The position numbers were made by a program, and so were the translations under genes. Positions 1-20,129 of a DNA stretch of 20,129 nt are shown here, piece after piece (position 1 is the stretch's first letter; each line of letters begins with the position of its first letter). The notes under the pieces are model-generated. The model was not told where the DNA came from. It saw only the letters and a list, made by a program, of their open reading frames with translations, and searched no databases. Source of the DNA: a virus. The stretch lies in the IMG/VR virus record IMGVR_UViG_3300045988_106376, positions 1 to 20,129 of that record. One strand, written 5' to 3'.

Positions 1-253
1 GAGTGTCAGCATAACCCTGTTCCCCATTGTCGAACACATGTTCACAGTACATGAACACAAACCAAACCGCCTCGCGTTGCTCGGTCTGGGTTCGCTCCGC
101 TCACCACACCGCACCACACTACATAGCACGACATTACACAACACCACACACCATCACACTAAAATGTTCCACGTGAAACAATGACACGCTAGGGTCCGTA
201 GTGAATTATGTGAAATTACAAAAACACTTGTATTCTAGAATAGGTGTGCTATA
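1..253. repeat. Left inverted terminal repeat (ITR), 253 bp
   Basis: Bases 1-253 are the exact reverse complement of 19877-20129, compared by eye over the whole length. Identity stops after ...ggtgtgctata: the left continues atgag, and the complement of the right end continues ttata. By hand count, 1-180 is about half G+C, against a visibly AT-rich genome body. Confidence 0.95.
102..161. repeat. Six tandem 10-bp phased CA-rich repeats inside the left ITR (consensus CAYYACACnn)
   Basis: Octamers start every 10 bp: 102 CACCACAC, 112 CACCACAC, 122 CATAGCAC, 132 CATTACAC, 142 CACCACAC, 152 CATCACAC. The top strand here has very little G or T. Confidence 0.85.
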
Positions 254-255
254 AT
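228..255 (+). promoter_or_regulatory. Left early promoter in and at the edge of the ITR (TTGTAT-16 nt-TGcTATAAT), with a 12-bp perfect palindrome TATTCTAGAATA (231-242) over the -35 and spacer
   Basis: -35 ttgtat at 228-233. Extended -10 tg-c-tataat at 247-255. It reads into the first ORF (ATG 285). The palindrome was checked base by base. Confidence 0.65.
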
Positions 256-284
256 GAGAGTACAAATAAGGAGAGGACAAGGAA

Positions 285-2726: not shown

Positions 2727-4553
2727 ATGGCAAAGAAAAAAGAGCCTAAAGAAATTTGGGCTTGTGATTTTGAAACTACAACCGACCCTTTAGACTGTAG
2801 AGTTTGGGCATGGGGAGCAAGTTTTGTTAGCGATTCAAGTATAAAAGAATATGGGAATAGTATTGACGGTTTTATTGAATGGTGCAAACAAAAAACACGT
2901 AAATTATATTTTCATAACTTAGCGTTTGATGGTGAATTTATTGTAAGTTGGCTTTTAAGTAACGGTTATGAGTATTCGGACAAGCCTAAAACCGGATGTT
3001 TTAAAACAATTATATCGAATACAGGTTTATGGTATTCGATTGAAGTATGGTGGAAATATTCAATTTATAGATCAACAAAAACCACAATATGGGATAGCTT
3101 TAAATTAATTCCATTTAGTATTGAGAAGATCGCGCATGATTTTAATTTACCAATTCGTAAATTAAAGTTGGACTATACAACAAAAAGAGAAATAGGGCAC
3201 GAGCTTACACCGCATGAAGTCGATTATCTATTTAATGATATCGATATTGAAGGTATGGCACTGAATGAATGTTTTAAGCTTGGATTTAATAAAATGACAG
3301 CCACTAGCTGCAGTTTTGACGCATTCAAGAAAACTTTGCCTATGTCGTTTGAAAAGATATTTACGCCTTTAGAAATGAATGTGGATACAGATTTAAGACC
3401 GGCATATAGTGGTGGTTTTGTATGGGCAAACCCGGAACTAAAAGAAAAAGAGATAGGACAAGGCATTGTATTTGATGTTAATTCACTTTTTCCATCGCGT
3501 ATGTATTATGAATTATTGCCGTATGATACACCTATTTATTTTAATGGTGAATACCAACAGGATGATGAATATCCTTTATGGGTAGGCGTTGTGAGTTTCG
3601 CTTTTGACATTAAAAAGGACCATATACCTTGTATATCGCTAGATAAGTTTTCTCGATTTTTTGGAAGTAAAAAATATGTAGACAGTTCAAACGGGGATAT
3701 CGTTAGAATGACTGTCACAAGTGTTGATTGGGAGTTATTCAATGAACAATATGATGTTTATGATGTAGAGTTCATTAATGGATATAAATTTAGAGGGTGT
3801 GTAGGTATCGCAAGGCAGTTTATCGATGAGCAAATGGAAATTAAAAAGAATTCTAAAGGTGCACAACGTTTTATAGCTAAACGACAATTAAATTCAGTAT
3901 ATGGGAAGTTCGCAACGAATCCAAATGTAACACCTAAAATTCCGTTTATTGATAAAGATGATGGCGTATTAAGACTTCACGACCCTATGTACACTACCTA
4001 TGAAGATGGAGAGGTTAAAGAGGTAATTGATGAGCAATTTAGAGATCCTATTTATTTACCGTATGGTGAATTTGTAACAGCTTACGCACGTAAATATACG
4101 ATATCAACAGCACAAAAGGTTGGTATACATAGAGTTGCATATATTGATACGGATTCAATACATTTAGTTGGTACACAAGTTCCGGACGCTATTAAAGATA
4201 TTATTGACGATAAGGAGTTAGGTTACTGGGGTCTAGAATCAGTGTTTACACGATCTTATTTTATCGGTGCTAAAAGTTATGTTGAAGAAATTGAAATAAG
4301 TTATAAGGAATACGTGGAGCACCAACAAGAATACATAAGTGAGAACGACTGTAAAGATAATTTGTATTATATTCGTGAGGGAGTTTGTTATTATTTGAAT
4401 GTCAAATGCGCGGGTATGACGCAAAAGGCTAAACAGAATGTAACATATGATAATTTTAGAGTTGGAAATGTTATTAATGATTGTTTAAAAAAGACACATG
4501 TACCTGGTGGTATTGTATTAGTTGATAGACAATTCAGCATTAAAAGTAGGTAG
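2727..4553 (+). CDS. Family-B protein-primed DNA polymerase (phi29 p2-like)
   Basis: Exo I WACDFETTT, Exo II FHNLAFDGEF, Exo III YLFNDIDI, motif A DVNSLFPSRMY, motif B KRQLNSVYGKFATNP, motif C YIDTDSIH and KxY GAKSY are all present. AAGGGGG lies upstream of the ATG. Confidence 0.97.
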   Translation: MAKKKEPKEIWACDFETTTDPLDCRVWAWGASFVSDSSIKEYGNSIDGFIEWCKQKTRKLYFHNLAFDGEFIVSWLLSNGYEYSDKPKTGCFKTIISNTGLWYSIEVWWKYSIYRSTKTTIWDSFKLIPFSIEKIAHDFNLPIRKLKLDYTTKREIGHELTPHEVDYLFNDIDIEGMALNECFKLGFNKMTATSCSFDAFKKTLPMSFEKIFTPLEMNVDTDLRPAYSGGFVWANPELKEKEIGQGIVFDVNSLFPSRMYYELLPYDTPIYFNGEYQQDDEYPLWVGVVSFAFDIKKDHIPCISLDKFSRFFGSKKYVDSSNGDIVRMTVTSVDWELFNEQYDVYDVEFINGYKFRGCVGIARQFIDEQMEIKKNSKGAQRFIAKRQLNSVYGKFATNPNVTPKIPFIDKDDGVLRLHDPMYTTYEDGEVKEVIDEQFRDPIYLPYGEFVTAYARKYTISTAQKVGIHRVAYIDTDSIHLVGTQVPDAIKDIIDDKELGYWGLESVFTRSYFIGAKSYVEEIEISYKEYVEHQQEYISENDCKDNLYYIREGVCYYLNVKCAGMTQKAKQNVTYDNFRVGNVINDCLKKTHVPGGIVLVDRQFSIKSR

Positions 4554-7188: not shown

Positions 7189-7203
7189 TCATGTTATAAT
7201 ATC

Positions 7204-7228
7204 GGTGTCATGAGTAGGACATGACACC
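7204..7228 (+). other. GC-rich perfect hairpin after the capsid gene (9-bp stem, 7-nt loop)
   Basis: ggtgtcatg (7204-7212) pairs with catgacacc (7220-7228). No clean T-run follows, so its role (mRNA 3' stabiliser or terminator) is unclear. Confidence 0.5.
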
Positions 7229-7264
7229 CCTCCTTTCTATTATTTAGGTGAATTGCAAGTTATG

Positions 7265-7300
7265 AAAAAGAGTTATTAATTTAACTCTTTTTCTTTTATT
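7265..7300 (+). terminator. Rho-independent terminator after the capsid gene
   Basis: aaaaagagtta (7265-7275) pairs with taactcttttt (7282-7292), loop ttaatt, followed by cttttatt. Confidence 0.8.
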
Positions 7301-7343
7301 TTTATTTAGTTTGTATTACTATGTATTTGAAGGTGGTGAGATC

Positions 7344-8168
7344 ATGTTAAGAAAAACTAAAAAGAAACAATCAGCAAGTCAAACAATTAAAGAACAATTT
7401 GAGAAAAACCAAGAAATCAAAATAGATATTGATAATTTTTTACCTAAGTTTGACGAGGTAAAGTTAAGCGGTAAAAATTTAGCTCAAAACTATGTGAGTG
7501 AATTTAATACGGGTATGAATATTTACCAATGTTTAAATTACTTACAAGGTCATATTGGGTGGCTTGTAAAAGCTGTGAATGATGTCGTTAAAAAATGGAA
7601 TAAAAATATTGAGGAAATGATTAAATATTGTATTGAGCTGTCTAAAAGTGAATTCGATAAACACTGGGCGGAGTTAAAACCTCAAGTTATTGAATTGACA
7701 AAACAGACAACGATCAATCAATTCAATGAAAAATGGGAAGAATTAAGACCTCAAGTGATTGAATTAACGAAACAAACAACAATCAATCAATTCAACGAAT
7801 CATGGGAAGAATTAAGACCTCAAGTGATTGAGTTAACGAAACAAACAACAATCAGTCAATTCAATCAATCATGGGAAGAATTAAAACCGGAGTTAACGCA
7901 ATATGTGAATAACACGATCAATCAATATATTGATAATCAAGATTCTAAAATCGGTAAAATGTACGACGATTTATCTATCTTGTTAACGAACTTAAAGAAC
8001 AGTGGAGCTTGGACACAAACGGGTGATACAATTTTTGACGGTCATATGACAGACGGTAGAAACATTGCCACAGGTAATATCAATATTTTTGGTGGAAGTG
8101 TTGACGGCGGTTCATACATCCGTACAAATAACGGTTCTAGTGAAAATGATTTGGCTGGTGGTGTATAA
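7344..8168 (+). CDS. Fibre protein (274 aa) with an N-terminal domain shared with the large appendage protein and four 23-aa W/P repeats
   Basis: ATG 7344 has GAAGGTGGTGAG upstream; the ORF-track TTG 7311 has no RBS. The N-terminal NFLPKFDEVKLSGKNLAQNYVSEFNTGMNIYQCLNYLQG is paralogous to residues of the 961-aa protein. The position after the capsid gene matches the phi29 head fibre gene 8.5. Whether this is a head fibre or a tail fibre is not decidable here. Confidence 0.7.
   Translation: MLRKTKKKQSASQTIKEQFEKNQEIKIDIDNFLPKFDEVKLSGKNLAQNYVSEFNTGMNIYQCLNYLQGHIGWLVKAVNDVVKKWNKNIEEMIKYCIELSKSEFDKHWAELKPQVIELTKQTTINQFNEKWEELRPQVIELTKQTTINQFNESWEELRPQVIELTKQTTISQFNQSWEELKPELTQYVNNTINQYIDNQDSKIGKMYDDLSILLTNLKNSGAWTQTGDTIFDGHMTDGRNIATGNINIFGGSVDGGSYIRTNNGSSENDLAGGV
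7653..7928 (+). repeat. Four in-frame 69-bp (23-aa) repeats in the short fibre gene
   Basis: FDKHWAELKPQVIELTKQTTINQ / FNEKWEELRPQVIELTKQTTINQ / FNESWEELRPQVIELTKQTTISQ / FNQSWEELKPELTQYVNNTINQY. Confidence 0.9.
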
Positions 8169-8887
8169 TGGCATGGCAGTATTTCTATGGCGCATATGAC
8201 AACACCGGACCCTATGCGAATGTTGTTTTAGGTGGCTCACCGGACAACACCGGACCGTTTGGAGCACCGTTAGCAGCCGCACACGCGTCCGGATATGGTA
8301 AAGGTATTAACTTTACAGATAATGGAAATTATGGTGTAACTTTTATTTTAGATTTAGTCGGTTATTCAATTACAGACGCTCAGCAATATGTTGCGAATGG
8401 TTATTATGTTGGTGATACATCTGTTAAATATAATTATTTTATTATTGTATCTAAGTCAACAGACAATCAAGGTTCATGGACAGAATTATTAAGAGAAAAA
8501 ATATTTACACATACGGGTCAAATGCCTTTAAATTATAGACAAGGCTGGGATGGAACAGCGCGAGCAAGTCAATGGAGTAAATTTATTCAATTATCAAATG
8601 ATACAACACATGTTAAAATTGAGTTACAAGGAGAAGATGCAACATTCCCACACTCAAATATTTACAGTATTCAACAGGTCATACCGGATTTTAGACCTTG
8701 GGGTATTCGTAAAGGCGGTGTGTTAAAATCATTAAATAAAGATAGTGGATTTTTAAAGATACGAAAATCGAACTCATGGAAGGACATTCCAAAATATAGT
8801 TATGATAAAGCCGGAAAAGAAAACCAAGGTACGAGTCGAATCTGTAAAAATGGAAAATGGTTAGGTCAAGGAAAAATAGGAAATTAG
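8168..8887 (+). CDS. Hypothetical structural protein, 239 aa, translationally coupled to the short fibre
   Basis: Its ATG shares one base with the upstream TAA (TAATG at 8166-8170). It has a Gly/Asn/Tyr-rich beta-type composition and a basic C-terminus. I recognise no family. Confidence 0.6.
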   Translation: MAWQYFYGAYDNTGPYANVVLGGSPDNTGPFGAPLAAAHASGYGKGINFTDNGNYGVTFILDLVGYSITDAQQYVANGYYVGDTSVKYNYFIIVSKSTDNQGSWTELLREKIFTHTGQMPLNYRQGWDGTARASQWSKFIQLSNDTTHVKIELQGEDATFPHSNIYSIQQVIPDFRPWGIRKGGVLKSLNKDSGFLKIRKSNSWKDIPKYSYDKAGKENQGTSRICKNGKWLGQGKIGN

Positions 8888-8916
8888 AAAATAGTTGAAC
8901 ATTCAACTATTTTTTT
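8888..8916 (+). terminator. Rho-independent terminator (28 nt identical to the one at 13623-13650)
   Basis: aaaatagttgaacattcaactatttttt: the stem is atagttg/caactat with flanking A and T runs. Confidence 0.75.
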
Positions 8917-8946: not shown

Positions 8947-9282
8947 ATGAAAATTATTTTAGTGGCATTAGTATTTAATGGTTTGGATTTAGTGACAGGT
9001 ATCGTTGGAGCTTTACGAGAAGGTGAGCAAATCAAGTCAAACAAGCTTAGAGACGGACTTTTTAAAAAGGTTGGTTTTATCTTTTGTTACACTTTAGGTG
9101 TTGCGATTAACTATGCGGAAAGTTATTTAACTTTGCCTTTTGGTGTTGATTTAATACCGGTGATTTGTACATATGCAATTATCACAGAGGTAGTTAGCAT
9201 TATCGAAAACATTTCTAAAATAAATAGTGACATCCTGCCGGATAAACTAAAAGCACTAATCGGATATAAAGAGGGTGAATAG
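8947..9282 (+). CDS. Holin (phage_holin_4_1-like, three TM segments)
   Basis: 111 aa. TM segments are IILVALVFNGLDLVTGIVGAL, VGFIFCYTLGVAINYA and LIPVICTYAIITEVVSII, with a charged C-terminus. GAAAGAGGTGA lies 5 nt upstream of ATG 8947. The ORF-track start 8929 sits inside the RBS region. Confidence 0.75.
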   Translation: MKIILVALVFNGLDLVTGIVGALREGEQIKSNKLRDGLFKKVGFIFCYTLGVAINYAESYLTLPFGVDLIPVICTYAIITEVVSIIENISKINSDILPDKLKALIGYKEGE

Positions 9283-9283
9283 T

Positions 9284-12169
9284 ATGAATTTTGATGAAAT
9301 AAAACAAAATATTTTAAATTCAAGTGAAACATCTACGAGCGAAAGCGAAAGTATTTCCGGTTCAGAGTTACATGAAGAATTTGAGATCAATAACTTTTTA
9401 CCGGAATTCGAGCCTTTAAAGTTAAGTGGTAAAAATTTAGCTCAGCAATACGTGAGTGCATTTAATACGGGTATGAATGTATACCAATGTTTAAACTATT
9501 TACAAGGATACGTTTATACACTCGTAACGGCTATGAATGAAACAATTGAGGCATGGAATACGGTAGTACCATTATTAGAGCAAGCTACAAAAGAATGGAC
9601 AGATGAGGAATTTGATTATAAATGGTCAATCTTAAAACCTCAAGTTATTGAGCTTGTAACAAATTTAACAATTGAAACATTCAATAATGCATGGGAAAAA
9701 TTAAGACCGGTTGTTATTAAGCTGGCACAGGATACAACAGACGTCGAATTTAAAAAACAATGGGATATTTTAAAACCGCAAGTTATTACACTCGTCGAGG
9801 AAACAACAACAAATAAATTCAATGAGGAATGGGAAAAATTAAGACCTACAATTATACAATTATCAACAGATACAACAATTGAACAATTTAATAGATCATG
9901 GGAAGAGTTAAGACCTCAAGTCATTGAATTATCACAAACTACAACAAGTAATAAATTTGATGAAAAATGGGAAGAGCTACGACCTCAATTAATTGAACTA
10001 GCACAAACTACAACAAGTAATAAATTTGATGAAAAATGGGAAGAATTACAACCAACATTAACAGAAACGGTTAACAATCTAGCTAAAACACAAACAACAA
10101 CGACATTCAATGAGAAATGGGAAGAATTAAAGCCTAAAGTTATTGAGTTAGCACAAACAACTACTAATACAAAGTTTGATGAAAAATGGGAAGAGCTACG
10201 ACCTCAATTAATTGAACTAGCACAAACTACAACAAGTAATAAATTTGATGAAAAATGGGAAGAATTACAACCAACATTAACAGAAACGGTTAACAATCTA
10301 GCTAAAACACAAACAACAACGACATTCAATGAGAAATGGGAAGAATTAAAGCCTAAAGTTATTGAGTTAGCACAAACAACTACTAATACAAAGTTTGATG
10401 AAAAATGGGAAGAGCTACGACCTCAATTAATTGAACTAGCACAAACTACAACAAGTAATAAATTTGATGAAAAATGGGAAGAATTACAACCAACATTAAC
10501 AGAAACGGTTAACAATCTAGCTAAAACACAAACAACAACGACATTCAATGAGAAATGGGAAGAGTTAAGACCTCAAGTTACTGAATTAGCACAAAATACA
10601 ACAAGCACAAAGTTTGATGAGAAATGGTCCGAATTACAACCAACATTAACAGAAACGGTTACTGATTTAGTTAACACAAATTTAAATACATTTAAAAGTA
10701 CATTATGGCAAGAAGTTACAAAAAATAATGATTTTCCTTTCTTATTACCCGAAAATTTTGGTGCTGTTGGTGATGGTGTAACGAATGATAGCAACGCATT
10801 TAATACATGTTTTGCAAAAGCAAACGCAAATCATAAATATATTTTATTAAGCAATAAAACATATTTAATTAGTAATACTTTAACGAATATCAAAGACACA
10901 AATATAATAGGTATTAATGCTACGATTATATTAGGTGACAACACGTTTACAAAACAAATAAATAATTGTGTGTTTAGTAATATCACAATTAAGCGTACTG
11001 TAGGAAGTGATTTACCACTAACTGAAAACTTTTTTTCATCTCAATTTAAGTATTGTAATTTTGTTGATATTAAGTATTTATTTAATCATATTTCACATAG
11101 AATTAATACGGTAGAACATTTATTATTAGATGAATGTAATTTACAAAATACACAACTTATTAATGTCACTAATCAATTTAATGGTGTGGTTTATAGTATT
11201 AATAAAACATTATTTTATTATGATGATGACTATAAACAAAGAACTACAATTATTGCTGGATATATTGGTGGTAAGTTTATATTTAATAATTGCACTTTCT
11301 CAAAATTTGAGCCGGGTGGAACAATTGAATTATTTGGTTCTCTTGATAATTTTGAATTTAATAATTGTTATATCAGTCATTATGATAATGCAAACACCTT
11401 TATTCTACCGAATATAAGTACTGTGGAGAAACAACAAATAACATTTAATAATTGTGATATTTCAAACAATAATAAATATTTAGTTGATGTGGTTAGCACA
11501 AATAACACGGTGCTGCCAACTGTTAATATTAAATATTCAACATTAAAAGTGAATGCAATTTTTAACGCAAAAAATGAATGTAGTTTATGGCTTGAAAACA
11601 ATCAAATTGACACTAAGCCTATTATTAATGCTGGAGTGGGTAAAGTTAATATCGTTGAAATTCAACAAAAGTATAGTGACACAAGCGAAAATATTTTCCC
11701 TTGGACAACAGAGCCTACGCCAACCGTTGAAAATAATGTTTCACTTGTTAAACTTGGTCAAGATGGATATTATTATGTTTTGACAGAAAGCAAAGATAAA
11801 AATGTTAAAAAATTAGATTATTATTTTAAATATGATTTTGATTATTTACCAAACGCGCCTTATTATAGTAGTAACTTTACTGTTAAAGATTTAGACCTAG
11901 AAGGTTATACAGTTAAGAGATCATCATTAACTAATAACACATGTAAATTAAAAAACAAAAGTACAGGTAAATTAATAGATTATGTTTATTTAATGTTAGA
12001 TGATAATGTAACAGTCACAACATCAAAAGATGACCCGCAACTTGTATTTACTTTAATAGCAGCGAAATATTTACCATATTTCGCTAAACTTAAAACAGAT
12101 ACACCTGTTGAAGGGCATTTGTATGTTGACGCATGTATTTCAATTATTTTAGAAAAAACTAGCTCATAA
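9284..12169 (+). CDS. Pre-neck appendage or tailspike-like protein (961 aa): shared N-terminal anchor, about 15 W/P repeats, C-terminal pectate-lyase-type beta-helix
   Basis: ATG 9284 has AAAGAGGGTGA upstream. NFGAVGDGVTNDSNAFNTCFAKA is the typical N-cap motif of Pectate_lyase_3-type beta-helix tailspikes, as in phi29 gp12. An Asn/Ile/Thr-rich periodic sequence follows it. Confidence 0.85.
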   Translation: MNFDEIKQNILNSSETSTSESESISGSELHEEFEINNFLPEFEPLKLSGKNLAQQYVSAFNTGMNVYQCLNYLQGYVYTLVTAMNETIEAWNTVVPLLEQATKEWTDEEFDYKWSILKPQVIELVTNLTIETFNNAWEKLRPVVIKLAQDTTDVEFKKQWDILKPQVITLVEETTTNKFNEEWEKLRPTIIQLSTDTTIEQFNRSWEELRPQVIELSQTTTSNKFDEKWEELRPQLIELAQTTTSNKFDEKWEELQPTLTETVNNLAKTQTTTTFNEKWEELKPKVIELAQTTTNTKFDEKWEELRPQLIELAQTTTSNKFDEKWEELQPTLTETVNNLAKTQTTTTFNEKWEELKPKVIELAQTTTNTKFDEKWEELRPQLIELAQTTTSNKFDEKWEELQPTLTETVNNLAKTQTTTTFNEKWEELRPQVTELAQNTTSTKFDEKWSELQPTLTETVTDLVNTNLNTFKSTLWQEVTKNNDFPFLLPENFGAVGDGVTNDSNAFNTCFAKANANHKYILLSNKTYLISNTLTNIKDTNIIGINATIILGDNTFTKQINNCVFSNITIKRTVGSDLPLTENFFSSQFKYCNFVDIKYLFNHISHRINTVEHLLLDECNLQNTQLINVTNQFNGVVYSINKTLFYYDDDYKQRTTIIAGYIGGKFIFNNCTFSKFEPGGTIELFGSLDNFEFNNCYISHYDNANTFILPNISTVEKQQITFNNCDISNNNKYLVDVVSTNNTVLPTVNIKYSTLKVNAIFNAKNECSLWLENNQIDTKPIINAGVGKVNIVEIQQKYSDTSENIFPWTTEPTPTVENNVSLVKLGQDGYYYVLTESKDKNVKKLDYYFKYDFDYLPNAPYYSSNFTVKDLDLEGYTVKRSSLTNNTCKLKNKSTGKLIDYVYLMLDDNVTVTTSKDDPQLVFTLIAAKYLPYFAKLKTDTPVEGHLYVDACISIILEKTSS
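9611..10690 (+). repeat. Array of about 15 degenerate in-frame 23-aa (some 27-aa) repeats forming the appendage shaft
   Basis: The consensus is F(D/N)EKWEEL(R/K)PQ(V/L)IELAQTTT(S/N)xK. Every third unit is a 27-aa variant, FDEKWEELQPTLTETVNNLAKTQTTTT. Confidence 0.9.
9956..10563 (+). repeat. Perfect 219-bp tandem repeat, about 2.8 copies (higher-order unit of 23+27+23 aa)
   Basis: Units start at 9956, 10175 and 10394. I compared the copies base by base and found no mismatch until 10564. Confidence 0.9.
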
Positions 12170-12422: not shown

Positions 12423-13624
12423 AACCAGGTCAAAAGTTAGTCCATGATGGGCATGAAGTTTGTTTATTTCCTATGGAAACCATGAATATTACACAATGGT
12501 CAAGTCCTACAGCTGATTCACATTGTTGTGGACACCCTTTTGATAACGCAATTAATGGACAGGTCCGTGTACCTGTATACGCCCCCTTTAGTTGTCATTT
12601 ATGCTATAGTGATAATCAAGGTAACACGCGCGCCTACAGTTCAGATAATCCCGTGTTAACACCAAACGGATTAAGCTATGTAACTGTGAGTTTTACACAT
12701 GACCCAGACCCACCAACCGCAACACAATATAAACAAGGTGATCTAATTTATCATACGGGTACGGCTGGTATGGCGACCGGTGACCACTGTCATATCGACC
12801 AAACGTTTACACAAAACGCTGGGCTTGTTTATTATGGTGTAACATGTAGGTATGGAAATCAATGTTACGCGTTAAGTGGTTCAGAATTACCGAATAATGT
12901 TTTTTATGTAAATGATACAAATATCGTGAATGGATATGGTCAAGCGTGGAAAACATTTGAAGGTGGACAACCTCCAATCCCACCCGAACCAAGCTATAAA
13001 TATACTAAACATTATTTCATGTTAGATGGTTTAGGTATTGATTTTGGTTTTTATAAAACAAAAGAAGAAATCAAACCCGAACCGCCAACGCCAACAAGTA
13101 AGTGGTTTATTCCCGGTGATATTAATAACACAAGACCACTTACAGAAGATGAATCGCGACAAAATTGGATCGCATTTTGGCAGTTTTTTAAAGCGAAAGG
13201 TTGGACAGCAAACGCGGTTGCTGGCATATTAGGCAACTCTTATTTTGAAAGTACAGTCAACCCGAACCGATGGGAGGATGATATTCCCTTTGCACAACCG
13301 GTAGCAAGTCGTGGATACGGGTTAGTTCAATGGACACCTTGGACGAAAATAATTAACTGGCTAAAAGAAAAAGGATATTACCCGGATGTTTCTAAGTTTG
13401 GTCAAGGTGAGTGTGAACGTATTCAATGGGAAATGGAAAATAATCAACAATGGATTGCTACAGCAACCTACCCCGAAAGTTTCGCAAGCTTTTCAAAATC
13501 GACAGCCGACCCGTACACACTAGCGATTGAATTTTTAGCCAACTATGAAAGACCAGCCGACCCGAACCAACCACAACGTGGCACTAAGGCACGTGAAATA
13601 TATGATTATATCAAAGACAAATAA
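12419..13624 (+). CDS. Tail-associated bifunctional peptidoglycan hydrolase: N-terminal M23/LytM-like peptidase plus C-terminal phage tail lysozyme-like domain
   Basis: GTAGMATGDHCHID matches the M23 G-x-TG-x-STG-x-H-x-H signature. Proline-rich linkers are QPPIPPEPS and KPEPPTPTS. The C-terminal AVAGILGNSYFESTVNPNRWE...GYGLVQWTPW resembles the phage tail lysozyme family. It is the functional equivalent of phi29 gp13. Confidence 0.8.
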   Translation: MKPGQKLVHDGHEVCLFPMETMNITQWSSPTADSHCCGHPFDNAINGQVRVPVYAPFSCHLCYSDNQGNTRAYSSDNPVLTPNGLSYVTVSFTHDPDPPTATQYKQGDLIYHTGTAGMATGDHCHIDQTFTQNAGLVYYGVTCRYGNQCYALSGSELPNNVFYVNDTNIVNGYGQAWKTFEGGQPPIPPEPSYKYTKHYFMLDGLGIDFGFYKTKEEIKPEPPTPTSKWFIPGDINNTRPLTEDESRQNWIAFWQFFKAKGWTANAVAGILGNSYFESTVNPNRWEDDIPFAQPVASRGYGLVQWTPWTKIINWLKEKGYYPDVSKFGQGECERIQWEMENNQQWIATATYPESFASFSKSTADPYTLAIEFLANYERPADPNQPQRGTKAREIYDYIKDK

Positions 13625-13650
13625 AATAGTTGAACATTCAACTATTTTTT
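13623..13650 (+). terminator. Rho-independent terminator, identical copy of 8888-8915
   Basis: aaaatagttgaacattcaactatttttt. Confidence 0.75.
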
Positions 13651-13680
13651 AATAAGATAAAATAAAAGGAGATGATTAAG

Positions 13681-19390: not shown

Positions 19391-19567
19391 TCATTTTAAA
19401 TCATATTTACCAACAGTATATAAATAATATTCATGTTTATAGCCGTACTTTTCAAAATACTTATTATACATATCTTGAACAATTTTATAGTCTGTATTAT
19501 GTATTACAATTAAACCGTCGAATGTAAAATAAAACTCAAAATTTATAGGCTTATCTATCATTAACAT
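19391..19567 (-). CDS. Hypothetical right-early protein, 58 aa (below the ORF-track cutoff)
   Basis: Minus-strand ATG at 19565-19567 has AAGGAGAC 8 nt upstream. Translation: MLMIDKPINFEFYFTFDGLIVIHNTDYKIVQDMYNKYFEKYGYKHEYYLYTVGKYDLK. The stop lies just before the bidirectional terminator. Confidence 0.55.
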   Translation of the reverse strand: MLMIDKPINFEFYFTFDGLIVIHNTDYKIVQDMYNKYFEKYGYKHEYYLYTVGKYDLK

Positions 19568-19604
19568 TTTTTAGTCTCCTTGTTAATTTGTAATTACTCA
19601 TACA

Positions 19605-19847
19605 CTAACCATTCTTTACGATTCTACAAACTTCTTTAAGATTGTTATTGATATGCTCATTCAAATAAATATAATCAGAATAATTAATATCTTTATCATT
19701 GTAAACCCTTTCACACATAACTAAACAAATACTTGTATAATCACTTAAAGCTTGTAGAACATTAGGTAGTTCGTGGCAACCTTTAATCTTTGATATTACA
19801 TCATTGTATTGTGTTTCAAGTACTTCTTTATATTTTTCTTTAGTCAT
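19605..19847 (-). CDS. Hypothetical right-early protein, 80 aa
   Basis: The start MTKEKYKEV at 19847 has AAGGAGGG 7 nt upstream. The ORF-track start 19886 lies inside the promoter and ITR. It is the first gene downstream of the right ITR promoter. Confidence 0.65.
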   Translation of the reverse strand: MTKEKYKEVLETQYNDVISKIKGCHELPNVLQALSDYTSICLVMCERVYNDKDINYSDYIYLNEHINNNLKEVCRIVKNG

Positions 19848-19874
19848 ATTATGACCCTCCTTCTTTTCACCTAT

Positions 19875-19902
19875 AATATAGCACACCTATTCTAGAATAC
19901 AA
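19875..19902 (-). promoter_or_regulatory. Right early promoter, the ITR-borne twin of the left one (TTGTAT-16 nt-TGcTATATT on the minus strand), with the same palindrome at 19888-19899
   Basis: The -35, spacer and first four bases of the -10 lie inside the ITR and are identical to the left promoter. The last two -10 bases differ (TATATT versus TATAAT). It reads into the minus-strand ORF starting at 19847. Confidence 0.6.
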
Positions 19903-20129
19903 GTGTTTTTGTAATTTCACATAATTCACTACGGACCCTAGCGTGTCATTGTTTCACGTGGAACATTTTAGTGTGATGGTGTGTGGTGTTGTGTAATGTC
20001 GTGCTATGTAGTGTGGTGCGGTGTGGTGAGCGGAGCGAACCCAGACCGAGCAACGCGAGGCGGTTTGGTTTGTGTTCATGTACTGTGAACATGTGTTCGA
20101 CAATGGGGAACAGGGTTATGCTGACACTC
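19877..20129. repeat. Right inverted terminal repeat (ITR), 253 bp
   Basis: Exact reverse complement of 1-253. Confidence 0.95.
19969..20028. repeat. Mirror copy of the six phased 10-bp repeats inside the right ITR (GT-rich on + strand)
   Basis: Reverse complement of 102-161, for example gtgtgatg at 19971-19978 and gtgtggtg at 20021-20028. Confidence 0.85.

Follow-up and report, generated by a model that had tools for sequence, protein, structure and literature searches.

The ends of this genome raise the question of what kind of element is represented by a CA-rich repeat array located approximately 60–160 nt from each terminus, the same zone where p6 nucleates in phi29. The window, by which we mean the whole stretch of 20,129 nt that was analysed, is the genome of a phi29-like, protein-primed gut phage, and all markers of this class were found: a type-B protein-primed polymerase, a phi29-type SSB, MCP, connector, gp9 knob, gp16 ATPase, inverted terminal repeats (ITRs) and terminal AAA. 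No similar or near-identical DNA was found among INPHARED phages. A sequence-only reading had described the array as six 10-bp repeats that sit on one face of the helix, and had proposed one of the early proteins encoded at 285–1083 as the binding partner.

Organisation of the terminal repeats

The ITR is 273 nt long at 97% identity (1..273 on the plus strand and 19857..20129 on the minus strand), with positions 1–253 being exact, and its right copy contains mirror copies of the array (19969–20028), parS (19950–19965) and the promoter (19875–19902). Relatives begin with AAAGAGTGTC, and Illumina adapter tails are joined directly to AAAGAGTG in L079, L038, L074, L065 and L032; as the three terminal A's are absent from the window, the physical end lies 3 nt further out, and 3 nt have to be added to all distances from the end. 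From the end inwards, the order is a presumed origin block (1–58), the repeat lattice (approximately 61–161), parS (165–180), a conserved segment and a promoter (228–255).

The terminal block (1..58, plus strand) is conserved, aligning at 83–94% in every relative whose sequence extends to the end, and contains small inverted repeats (GAAC..GTTC and TGTTCA..TGAACA). It is presumed to be the minimal replication origin, based on the protein-primed replication of phi29-type genomes (PMC4974454). The block is followed on the same strand by a GC-rich module of seven pentamers at 67..101 (CCGCC TCGCG TTGCT CGGTC TGGGT TCGCT CCGCT), which is optional, being present in 11/22 ITR variants, and by the CA-rich array at 102..161, with 12 CAYNN units. 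The conserved segment, present in all relatives just upstream of the promoter, contains the direct repeats GTGAATTAT and GTGAAATTA (199..222, plus strand). The inward early promoter (228..255, plus strand) is strongly conserved and has a weak −35 (TTGTAT), a 16-nt spacer and an extended −10 (TGcTATAAT); it was not listed by the consensus scan, because its −35 matches at only 3/6 positions. This promoter is predicted to drive the genes from o285 onwards, with its mirror copy predicted to drive 19886–19391 on the minus strand, and an annotated promoter is located at the equivalent ITR edge of Cp-1.

The array is abutted by a parS site at 165..180, which was missed in the sequence-only reading. 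This box (TGTTCCACGTGAAACA) matches the palindrome TGTTNCACGTGAAACA and is identical at 16/16 positions to the Spo0J/ParB site of B. subtilis (sequence from PMC4333373). Within the window it does not occur outside the two ITRs, with a chance expectation of ~1e-5 per genome in a simple 4^-16 estimate. Most relatives have it as well, and a 21-mer including the parS flanks gave 49 exact matches in IMG/VR relatives, at both ends. In five close relatives, parS has been lost via a deletion between AACAATG repeats, with the lattice being kept. The use of parS/Spo0J and of host-factor sites at the genome ends has been described for phi29 (PMC2731898), while for the host of the window's phage there is only a weak hint of sporulation, namely a Clostridia MAG bin.

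Period of the array and its conservation

The decamers are present as quoted in the sequence-only reading, starting at 101/102 and with the same sequence at the right end, and the composition of the array was confirmed as strongly asymmetric (C 27, A 23, T 7 and G 3 at 101–160, corresponding to 5% G and 12% T on the top strand) and as part of a GC-rich island (GC 0.60 at 51–125 and ~0.5 in the array, versus 0.32 for the genome). Of the six copies of CAYYACAC that had been counted, five are exact (at 102, 112, 132, 142 and 152), whereas the third unit (CATAGCAC) is off at two positions; the motif does not occur elsewhere in the genome. The repetition is clearly non-random, with a lag-10 autocorrelation of 0.70 (p≈5e-5), the highest of all lags, and a lag-5 autocorrelation of 0.60 (p≈7.5e-4), both with dinucleotide-preserving shuffles as null.

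The proposed 10-bp spacing did not withstand further analysis. The triplet CAY recurs every 5 nt, 12 times, with C-A-Y invariant in the 12 units and the other two positions varying freely, and 12/18 of the CA steps fall in a single mod-5 phase (p<5e-5). The spectrum of the array has power at periods 5 and 2.5 (z≈15 at 2.5), with no power at period 10 or 10.5 (z≈−0.9), and across the window and 22 relatives the z-scores at periods 10, 10.5 and 11 are at most 1.1. Periods of 12 and 24 are likewise absent from the array (z = −0.8 and −1.1, respectively; maximum z of 0.9 in relatives). The odd/even alternation behind the 10-nt reading is marginal (p≈0.05, pentamer order permuted), and Tandem Repeats Finder (TRF) scores of 33 for period 5 and 39 for period 10 do not reach the default threshold of 50. 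The fundamental period of the array is 5 nt, not 10, and since this places the CAY triplets on alternating faces, the proposal that all repeats sit on one helix face fails.

Something of the array's kind is present in every relative, although neither CAYYACAC nor its 10-bp register is conserved. Among 34 ITR variants of close relatives the decamer motif occurs in 0–5 copies, usually 1–2, whereas none of them lacks a 5-nt N-R-Y-N-Y lattice, which fills a hypervariable interior of 59–260 nt, as measured in short-read metagenome assemblies, in which repeat arrays can be collapsed. This terminus-to-parS distance is not quantised and has no mod-10 preference, and no conservation of helical phase was found between the origin and parS or the promoter. 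The lattice is in register with the parS box, with positions 2, 3 and 5 being R in 87%, Y in 93% and Y in 94% (last 30 nt, 29 ITR variants), and the pattern can be followed as far as 100 nt. Of 24 spacings between copies of the motif, 22 are multiples of 5; the median z-scores of the 22 relatives are 4.8 (period 5) and 7.1 (period 2.5), and interior 100-nt windows of the genomes never attain the periodicity values of the ITRs.

The sequence of the lattice changes rapidly. Hardly any 8-mers are common to the ITR interiors (Jaccard distance 0.94), which are extremely variable in sequence and length among phages with 92–98% identical polymerases, while the left and right ITR copies are identical within each genome. 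Repeat units in the relatives are 5, 10 or 15 nt long, with runs of identical units such as CGCAC (three copies, L001), CTACTCCGYY (four copies, L016) and a 15-nt unit (L010), and these head-to-tail units differ in whole-unit copy number among close relatives, as is characteristic of a satellite. A stretch of CA-type pentamers beside parS is kept in every variant, including the shortest. Substitutions between homologous arrays (transition:transversion 12:10 versus 10:11, p = 0.76, 43 events) do not spare the 'constrained' lattice positions, and purifying selection on the lattice is thus not demonstrated.

Lattices of this kind extend to more distant lineages. The phage L192, with a polymerase 69% identical, has an (ACNNN)n lattice (z = 9.6) without parS, and together with the five close relatives that have lost parS this means that a link to ParB cannot be obligatory. 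In a second clade (polymerase identity 43–44%), the ITR of 273–289 bp consists of a terminal block, a 5-nt lattice (z = 6–12) and parS, in the form TGTTTCACGTGAAACA. The strand bias of this clade is opposite, being G-rich from the end inwards (40% G and 20% C on the equivalent strand) as compared to C/A-rich in the window's clade, and this opposite polarity argues for double-strand rather than single-strand action. No 5-nt lattice was detected in eight described phi29-like phages, including Cp-1 and asccphi28 with their long ITRs; as an end structure of phi29-like gut phages, the lattice is without counterpart in these eight. Among the papers searched, none linked pentanucleotide repeats with terminal-protein ITRs.

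Candidate binding proteins and competing explanations

The early proteins proposed as binders do not follow the array. Both o285 and o499 occur in 1/80 relatives, and L002, which has the array most similar to that of the window, lacks o285; o781 is a core early gene in the clade (68/80 relatives), yet is absent from the other lattice-bearing lineages. ITR module types were not associated with accessory early gene families (best p = 0.08, 28 tests), and Mantel correlations of the ITR interior with o781, o1052, SSB, TP, polymerase, o4699 and o5102 were weak (r = 0.07–0.20), so no early gene family or core protein was found to co-vary with array type, and no small protein common to the lattice-bearing clades was found. 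The predicted structure of o781 (pLDDT 56) is too poor for fold assignment, and a BFVD fold search was uninformative. A ribbon-helix-helix (RHH) fold suspected for o5102 from its sequence pattern was not supported, as AlphaFold predicted three helices (pLDDT 68), and this protein had no significant PDB sequence or fold match. Homologues of p6, p4, p16.7, p17 and RHH proteins were not found by phmmer; for p6, the queries (p6 of GA-1 and MG-B1, and an Enterococcus phage DBP), with which an analogue lacking sequence similarity would be missed, gave only E > 0.3, and there was no Pfam or PHROG match. Good matches to SpoIIIE/FtsK polar motifs (SRS/KOPS) and RacA ram sites were absent from the window; the G-rich lattice of the second clade may resemble such polar motifs. 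Together with the spectra, these results make it very unlikely that the array represents six phased 10-bp iterons on one DNA face, binding a specific early protein (285–1083) that organises the origin. Such iterons would fit the dominance of lag 10 among the autocorrelations, the position in the p6 nucleation zone and the core status of o781, but not the lack of power at 10, 10.5 and 11 in the window and in any relative, the marginal alternation, the non-conserved motif or the absence of a co-varying gene.

The main rival to the explanation that we prefer is a neutral satellite. The interior would be a spacer that the phage can do without, and its pentanucleotide repeats would grow, shrink and degrade through slippage of the polymerase, through mispairing of the two ITR copies out of register, or through unequal recombination. 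The periodicity would then be a mutational footprint that nothing reads. We consider this somewhat unlikely, but it accounts for the extreme variability of the interior despite nearly identical polymerases, for the runs of identical units in L001, L016 and L010, which suggest recent slippage, for substitutions without lattice-specific constraint, for the failure to find a partner protein, and for shortest interiors of only ~30–60 nt. It accounts less well for the unit length, which remains 5n for unrelated motifs, for both strand polarities and in each of three lineages, the most distant having 43% polymerase identity; plain microsatellites would be expected to have assorted unit sizes. The CA-type pentamers retained beside parS in every variant and the invariance of C-A-Y across the window's 12 units also speak against neutrality, as does the lattice-free state of the long ITRs of Cp-1 and asccphi28, and compact 20-kb phage genomes seldom carry 2 × 100–250 bp of useless DNA.

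A role in single-stranded form, which we regard as distinctly unlikely, would have the C+A-only 5′ strand incapable of self-folding, keeping the displaced strand open for SSB, with its two ITR copies annealing fast into a panhandle and out-of-register annealing producing 5n changes. The scarcity of G and T on the top strand, its low fold energy (−0.11 kcal/mol per nt for 61–164), the encoded phi29-type SSB and the C-rich, G-poor 5′ strands at the termini of GA-1, Cp-1 and BeachBum are consistent with this role. Fold z-scores are unremarkable, though, all four bases occur in the optional modules (GC-rich and GATCT/TAGTT) of close relatives, and the second-clade strand, of opposite polarity, has a composition that allows self-pairing; panhandle replication is known for adenovirus but is not known to occur in phi29-like phages. 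The decamers could alternatively be degenerate 0A boxes (a 7-bp box plus a 3-bp spacer) through which host Spo0A shuts down the origin, reminiscent of the four consecutive 0A boxes near each end of phi29 (PMC2731898). A perfect TGTCGAA is present at 28–34, and this box and parS together make the exploitation of host sporulation or segregation factors plausible. The box at 28–34 is not conserved in relatives, however, the best matches within the array are just two (127 and 134), with 2 mismatches, and boxes with ≤1 mismatch are as frequent in the 34 ITR variants (3.1 per kb) as in the genome background (2.7 per kb); a Spo0A array is thus largely refuted by the sequence and highly improbable. 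That the array is part of a non-coding RNA gene transcribed from the ITR, such as a packaging RNA, is scarcely credible. The annotations of Cp-1 and asccphi28 do place outward promoters within the ITRs, and an Rfam search of the whole window found no pRNA or other family, which leaves room for one here; against this, a consensus scan and a reading of the conserved ITR part gave no such promoter, and neither strand of the interior is unusually structured. An interior that cannot be aligned among close relatives is also incompatible with a structured RNA docking on a conserved connector.

The explanation that we tentatively favour, while holding it to be somewhat short of probable, is a sequence-tolerant, double-stranded architectural zone between the origin and parS, with turnover by slippage in steps of 5n. 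The six decamers are the local form of a 5-nt (half-helical-turn) lattice filling the variable ITR interior, and this GC-rich, palindrome-poor lattice would act on double-stranded DNA. With a like base step every half turn, static bends should cancel and flexibility should be even, a point of reasoning rather than of computation. The zone may then provide a landing or nucleation region for a cooperative DNA coat of low specificity, for which a functional analogue of phi29 p6 is a candidate, or alternatively host ParB/Spo0J, which could spread from parS, next to the lattice, in the direction of the protein-capped end. In phi29, the origin nucleoprotein complex is assembled at this position. Slippage or unequal exchange would change the arrays in steps of 5n, and ITR homogenisation would keep both ends identical. 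In a more specific version, which we consider rather unlikely, the half-turn lattice is coupled to parS and read by a filament with 5-bp steps, giving a telomere-like cap. The filament might consist of host ParB/Spo0J that loads at parS and becomes trapped by the terminal protein, or of another phage or host protein, and the cap would govern the start of protein-primed replication, early transcription or the passage of the genome into spores.

Protein-primed phages are a model for the end-replication of linear DNA, and in phi29 the subterminal 50–125 bp are the meeting place of p6, Spo0A and the replication machinery, with a signal that has been described only as a vague 'bendability pattern'. 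The window's phage group has an explicit periodic signal at the equivalent place, with a register that persists as the sequence changes, and with a perfect copy of a host centromere site next to it at both ends. If read by a protein, the lattice would give a handle on how origin nucleoprotein complexes recognise DNA shape, and on how virulent gut phages use the host segregation machinery, possibly riding into spores; if a filament does read it, the lattice would represent a novel type of periodic DNA signal, one set by its register and not by its sequence. If read by nothing, the lattice would be a clean natural case of 5n-constrained satellite turnover in concertedly evolving terminal repeats, of which the mutational mechanism would need explaining.

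Comparison with known systems

The nearest comparison is with phi29, in which p6 nucleates at 46–68 and 62–125 nt from the ends and responds to a pattern of bendability, not to a sequence (PMC4974454). The lattice has a similar subterminal position (~61–161, or 64–164 from the true end), and the recognition of a periodic DNA property instead of a fixed sequence, as proposed here, would be a further likeness. Both zones lie between the origin capped by terminal protein (TP) and an end-proximal early promoter, which in phi29 is repressed by p6 (PMC4974454). They differ in that p6 forms a 12/24-bp lattice, whereas the window has no such period and no detected p6 homologue, and in that phi29 has a 6-bp ITR without explicit repeats, as opposed to overt repeats of 5-nt period inside a 273-bp ITR.

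Short direct repeats near the ends do have a precedent in this phage family, contrary to what the sequence-only reading had implied in recognising nothing similar: phi29 has consecutive subterminal Spo0A boxes at both ends, spaced 10 bp centre-to-centre, at which bound host Spo0A competes with p6 and the origin complex, and these arrays are variable between lineages, with Nf lacking 25–50 bp of them (PMC2731898). The units in the window are not such boxes, which are not enriched in the ITRs, and their period is 5 rather than 10. A virulent protein-primed phage carrying the host chromosomal parS is likewise known from phi29, which has five parS sites and undergoes Spo0J-dependent entrapment in spores (PMC2731898). 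The window differs in having one perfect parS per ITR, ~170 nt from the terminal protein, and in the second clade no element of the ITR lies further in than parS. Cp-1 (ITR of 236 bp) and asccphi28 (577 bp) are protein-primed podophages with the same gene order as the window and an inward early promoter at the inner ITR edge, but unlike the window their ITRs contain neither the 5-nt lattice nor parS.

Outside this family, plasmid iterons are also tandem direct repeats adjoining a replication origin, but are typically 17–22 bp long, helically phased, conserved in sequence and co-evolving with a cognate Rep, whereas the window has degenerate 5-nt units; the conserved specific repeat, helical phasing and co-varying nearby initiator that define iterons were all absent. 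The terminal repeats of parvoviruses, which also have linear genomes, contain runs of 4–5-nt units, with (GAGC)n bound by AAV Rep and (ACCA)n by MVM NS1; each unit takes one protein subunit, and the subunits wind round the helix instead of lining one face. Parvoviruses replicate by rolling hairpin with an HUH nuclease, however, and as no such protein is encoded here the analogy is functional only. Telomeric and microsatellite repeats resemble the lattice in being strand-asymmetric units of 5–8 nt near the ends of linear replicons, with rapid turnover in unit steps. The arrays described here differ in being subterminal, behind a unique 58-nt origin block and with no evidence of terminal addition, and their polarity is reversed in the second clade; in the window's clade, as in eukaryotic telomeres, the C/A-rich strand carries the 5′ end.

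The genome, its ends and its close relatives

The window is the complete linear genome of a phi29-like podophage (GC content 32%), with inverted terminal repeats (ITRs) of 273 nt at 97% identity, positions 1–253 being exact. It encodes a protein-primed type-B polymerase (2727–4553, 44% identity to phi29/Nf, Pfam DNA_pol_B_2), a phi29-type SSB (1410–1811), a putative terminal protein (1866–2708), and the phi29 scaffold, major capsid protein, gp9 tail knob, gp10 connector and gp16 packaging ATPase. No near-identical DNA was present among 50,697 deposited phage records, and at least 80 close relatives with 89–98% polymerase identity were found in IMG/VR. One phage copy was located inside a human-gut MAG with the bin label 'Clostridia bacterium', which points weakly to a Clostridia host.

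Many relatives start with AAAGAGTGTC, and in five contigs (L079, L038, L074, L065 and L032) Illumina adapter tails are joined directly onto AAAGAGTG, which places the physical end at AAAGAG. The terminal A-run serves sliding-back in phi29 (PMC4974454), and a similar AAA is present at the inferred physical ends of this phage group; the window stops three A's short of them at either end (positions 1 and 20129). Adapter remnants (TruSeq, Nextera) were seen in the first 20–65 nt of the same five contigs and of L210. The terminal origin block is partly duplicated in tandem (three ~34–40-nt units) in the first ~130 nt of L063, L067 and L019, and L006 has three copies of an interior ~65-nt unit at 45–230, both being either real or assembly artefacts.

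Elsewhere in the genome, the strongly structured 122-nt intergenic gap behind the capsid gene (7189–7310) contains an extended -10 sequence (TGTTATAAT), a conserved hairpin (GTGTCATGAGTAGGACATGACAC) and an intrinsic terminator, and could, judged from sequence, encode a ~90-nt small RNA; a packaging RNA was not located by Rfam. The structural ORFs at 7311–8168 and 9275–12169, with in-frame tandem repeats of 69 nt and 219 nt at 7674–7888 and 9803–10627 and a common WEEL(K/R)P..IELA..TT repeat, are predicted to encode repeat-domain fibre or appendage proteins. A near-identical palindromic hairpin (AAAATAGTTGAACATTCAACTATTTT) has two intergenic copies (8883–8916 and 13620–13653), which are probably bidirectional terminators.

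The terminal array is part of a 5-nt lattice

The CA-rich array at 102–161 was described in the sequence-only reading as six CAYYACAC copies, phased at 10 bp on one helix face. The decamers read exactly as quoted and recur at the right end (19969–20028), and both the strand asymmetry (27 C and 23 A versus 7 T and 3 G at 101–160) and the GC-rich island (0.5–0.6 against the 32% of the genome) were borne out, but only five of the six units match the motif, the third (CATAGCAC) failing. Relative to 20,000 dinucleotide-preserving shuffles, autocorrelation was significant at lag 10 (0.70, p≈5e-5) and at lag 5 (0.60, p≈7.5e-4), and 12/18 CA steps share one mod-5 phase, which was matched by none of the shuffles. 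The basic unit is a pentamer, with C-A-Y invariant in all twelve (CACCA CACCG CACCA CACTA CATAG CACGA CATTA CACAA CACCA CACAC CATCA CACTA) and the remaining two positions free. All Fourier power was at period 2.5 (z≈15), a harmonic of 5, with none at periods 10, 10.5, 11, 12 or 24, and the odd/even alternation from which the 10-nt reading arose is marginal (p≈0.05 when the 12 pentamers are shuffled among themselves). Since the conserved triplets recur every half turn, they lie on alternating helix faces rather than on one.

A scan of IMG/VR for the conserved box (parS, 165–180) recovered both ends of many contigs and, with polymerase-anchored loci, gave 34 distinct ITR variants, which are related by descent, so that counts across them are not independent. 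Left and right copies were identical inside each genome, an identity that may be partly assembly-made, as all relatives are short-read metagenome assemblies in which repeat arrays may be collapsed. All variants share a ~58-nt conserved terminal block, a hypervariable interior (59–260 nt), the box, and a conserved segment with an inward early promoter (228–255; TTGTAT, 16 nt, TGcTATAAT) pointing into the early genes. Conserved direct repeats (GTGAATTAT / GTGAAATTA) at 199–222, immediately upstream of this promoter, may form an operator together with CGTGAAACAA at the parS edge.

The interiors consist of CA-type pentamers (such as CACAC, CGCAC, AACAC and AACCC), a GC-rich CGCTC-type module, and GTCTGATCTAACTCC, GGTCTTAGTTAGTCTTGTCTAAC and CTACTCCGYY units, with almost no 8-mers common to different variants (mean Jaccard distance 0.94). 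Neither the decamer (0–5 copies of CAYYACAC, mostly 1–2) nor its 10-bp register is conserved; instead the 22 interiors that measure 80 nt or more keep a 5-nt register (median z of 4.8 for period 5 and of 7.1 for period 2.5, with a period-10 maximum of 0.2), and the ITR values were never reached by interior genome windows. Counted from the box, the lattice follows the pattern N-R-Y-N-Y, with position 2 purine in 87%, position 3 pyrimidine in 93% and position 5 pyrimidine in 94% (last 30 nt before the box, 29 variants), and is still detectable at 100 nt from the box. Distances between CAYYACAC copies were a multiple of 5 in 22/24 cases, and the terminus-to-box distance showed a weak mod-5 and no mod-10 preference. 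The array belongs to a lattice that takes up the ITR interior from the origin block to parS/promoter. This lattice is present in duplicate, once per genome end, stays in register with parS and turns over rapidly in 5n steps.

More distant relatives were reached through polymerase alignment. In L192 (69% polymerase identity), an array near the contig end (41–140; ACCTC ACGTG ACCTC ACGTC ACATC ACAGT...) repeats AC at 5-nt intervals (period-5 z = 9.6), as (ACNNN)n with nine units of roughly ACYTCACNNN, and is not accompanied by a parS. A second clade, with only 43–44% polymerase identity and, like phi29, a polymerase gene transcribed toward the end, has ITRs of 273–289 bp (L217 1–289; also L227, L230 and L226, with matching right ends L228, L221, L223 and L229) in which a terminal block is followed by a 5-nt lattice (z = 6–12, nothing at period 10) and, innermost, a parS (TGTTTCACGTGAAACA), right after which ITR identity ends. 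In this clade G makes up 40% of the strand that leads inward from the terminus, the opposite polarity to the C/A-rich strand of the window. As the lattice is present in these three lineages with differing arrays, it is recurrent in several gut lineages and independent of any particular motif. It was not found at the ends of eight described phages (Cp-1, asccphi28, GA-1, BeachBum, MG-B1, Mendel, an Enterococcus phage and a faecal contig), of which Cp-1 and asccphi28 have annotated ITRs of 236 and 577 bp, and the literature searched contained no description of a 5-nt lattice in phage ITRs.

parS and early genes beside the lattice

The box adjoining the array directly (165–180, mirror 19950–19965) reads TGTTCCACGTGAAACA, identical to the parS of B. 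subtilis, which is bound by Spo0J/ParB (PMC4333373). A perfect 16-mer is expected by chance about 1e-5 times per genome of this size, and the only copies in the window are those in the two ITRs. It is conserved in most relatives, and in five close relatives a 17-nt deletion between AACAATG direct repeats has removed it but left the lattice in place.

The early proteins encoded at 285–1083 had been put forward as array binders, but ORFs o285 and o499 were found in only 1/80 relatives, and L002, the contig with the most similar array, lacks o285. The core genes of this clade, o781 (68/80), the two-TM o1052 (75/80) and the small basic o5102 (80/80), have no homologues in the 43–44% clade; of the three, only o5102 had a weak match, in the lattice-free contig L193. 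Lattice-bearing lineages have only universal replication and structural proteins in common. No p6 or p4 homologue was detectable, predicted structures gave no usable fold match for o781 (pLDDT 56) or o5102 (pLDDT 68), module types showed no association with families of accessory early genes (lowest p = 0.08 in 28 tests), and no core protein stood out in covariation with the ITR interior (r = 0.07–0.20). The ITR-proximal early genes (285–780 and 19391–19886) are highly mosaic, with o19605 present in 2/80 relatives and at least 14 small early ORF families exchanged behind the nearly invariant promoter.

Possible roles of the lattice and comparison with phi29

The main rival to a functional lattice is a neutral satellite that nothing reads, which we consider only slightly less likely than our preferred reading. 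Slippage would account for the runs of identical units and the extreme length variation, and in homologous arrays substitutions were equal at 'constrained' and 'free' positions (transition:transversion 12:10 versus 10:11, p = 0.76, 43 events). It accounts less readily for unit sizes that are always 5, 10 or 15 in all three lineages despite their unrelated motifs and opposite polarities, for the CA-type stretch kept beside parS in even the shortest interiors, and for three invariant and two free positions in the window array, features that favour a constraint. Other explanations, namely one-face 10-bp iterons, a single-strand role, an RNA gene and a Spo0A array, are each less likely. The last of these has a precedent in phi29, where Spo0A boxes stand four in a row close to each end, in competition with the origin complex of p6 (PMC2731898), a finding that qualifies the earlier statement that such an arrangement is unfamiliar from phi29-like phages. 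The array and other ITR modules were rejected as degenerate 0A boxes, as box density in ITRs (3.1 per kb) is no different from the genome background (2.7 per kb). A perfect 0A-box consensus (TGTCGAA) lies in the terminal origin block (28–34, mirror 20096–20102) and is not conserved in relatives.

Our preferred, still tentative reading is that the lattice is a sequence-tolerant architectural zone on which a coat could nucleate. It would act on duplex DNA, since strand polarity is reversible between clades. The lattice is GC-rich within an AT-rich genome and nearly palindrome-free, and, by reasoning rather than calculation, static bends should cancel because a step of one type comes back at each half turn. 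A cooperative coat of low specificity could nucleate or accumulate there. It would consist of an analogue of p6, or of host ParB that spreads outward from the neighbouring parS in the direction of the terminal protein capping the end. The position of the lattice matches the site at which the origin complex of phi29 assembles.

Carriage of host parS seems widespread in the phi29-like group. Phage phi29, with five parS sites of its own, employs Spo0J to bring its genome into spores (PMC2731898), and internal parS sites with the consensus or one mismatch (L130 4784; L137 10436 and 13901; L131 and L135) are carried by Enterococcus vB_EfaP_2/Chl-5, BeachBum, MG-B1 and one faecal contig. The peculiarity of the window is a parS inside the ITR, as opposed to the internal location in several described phages.
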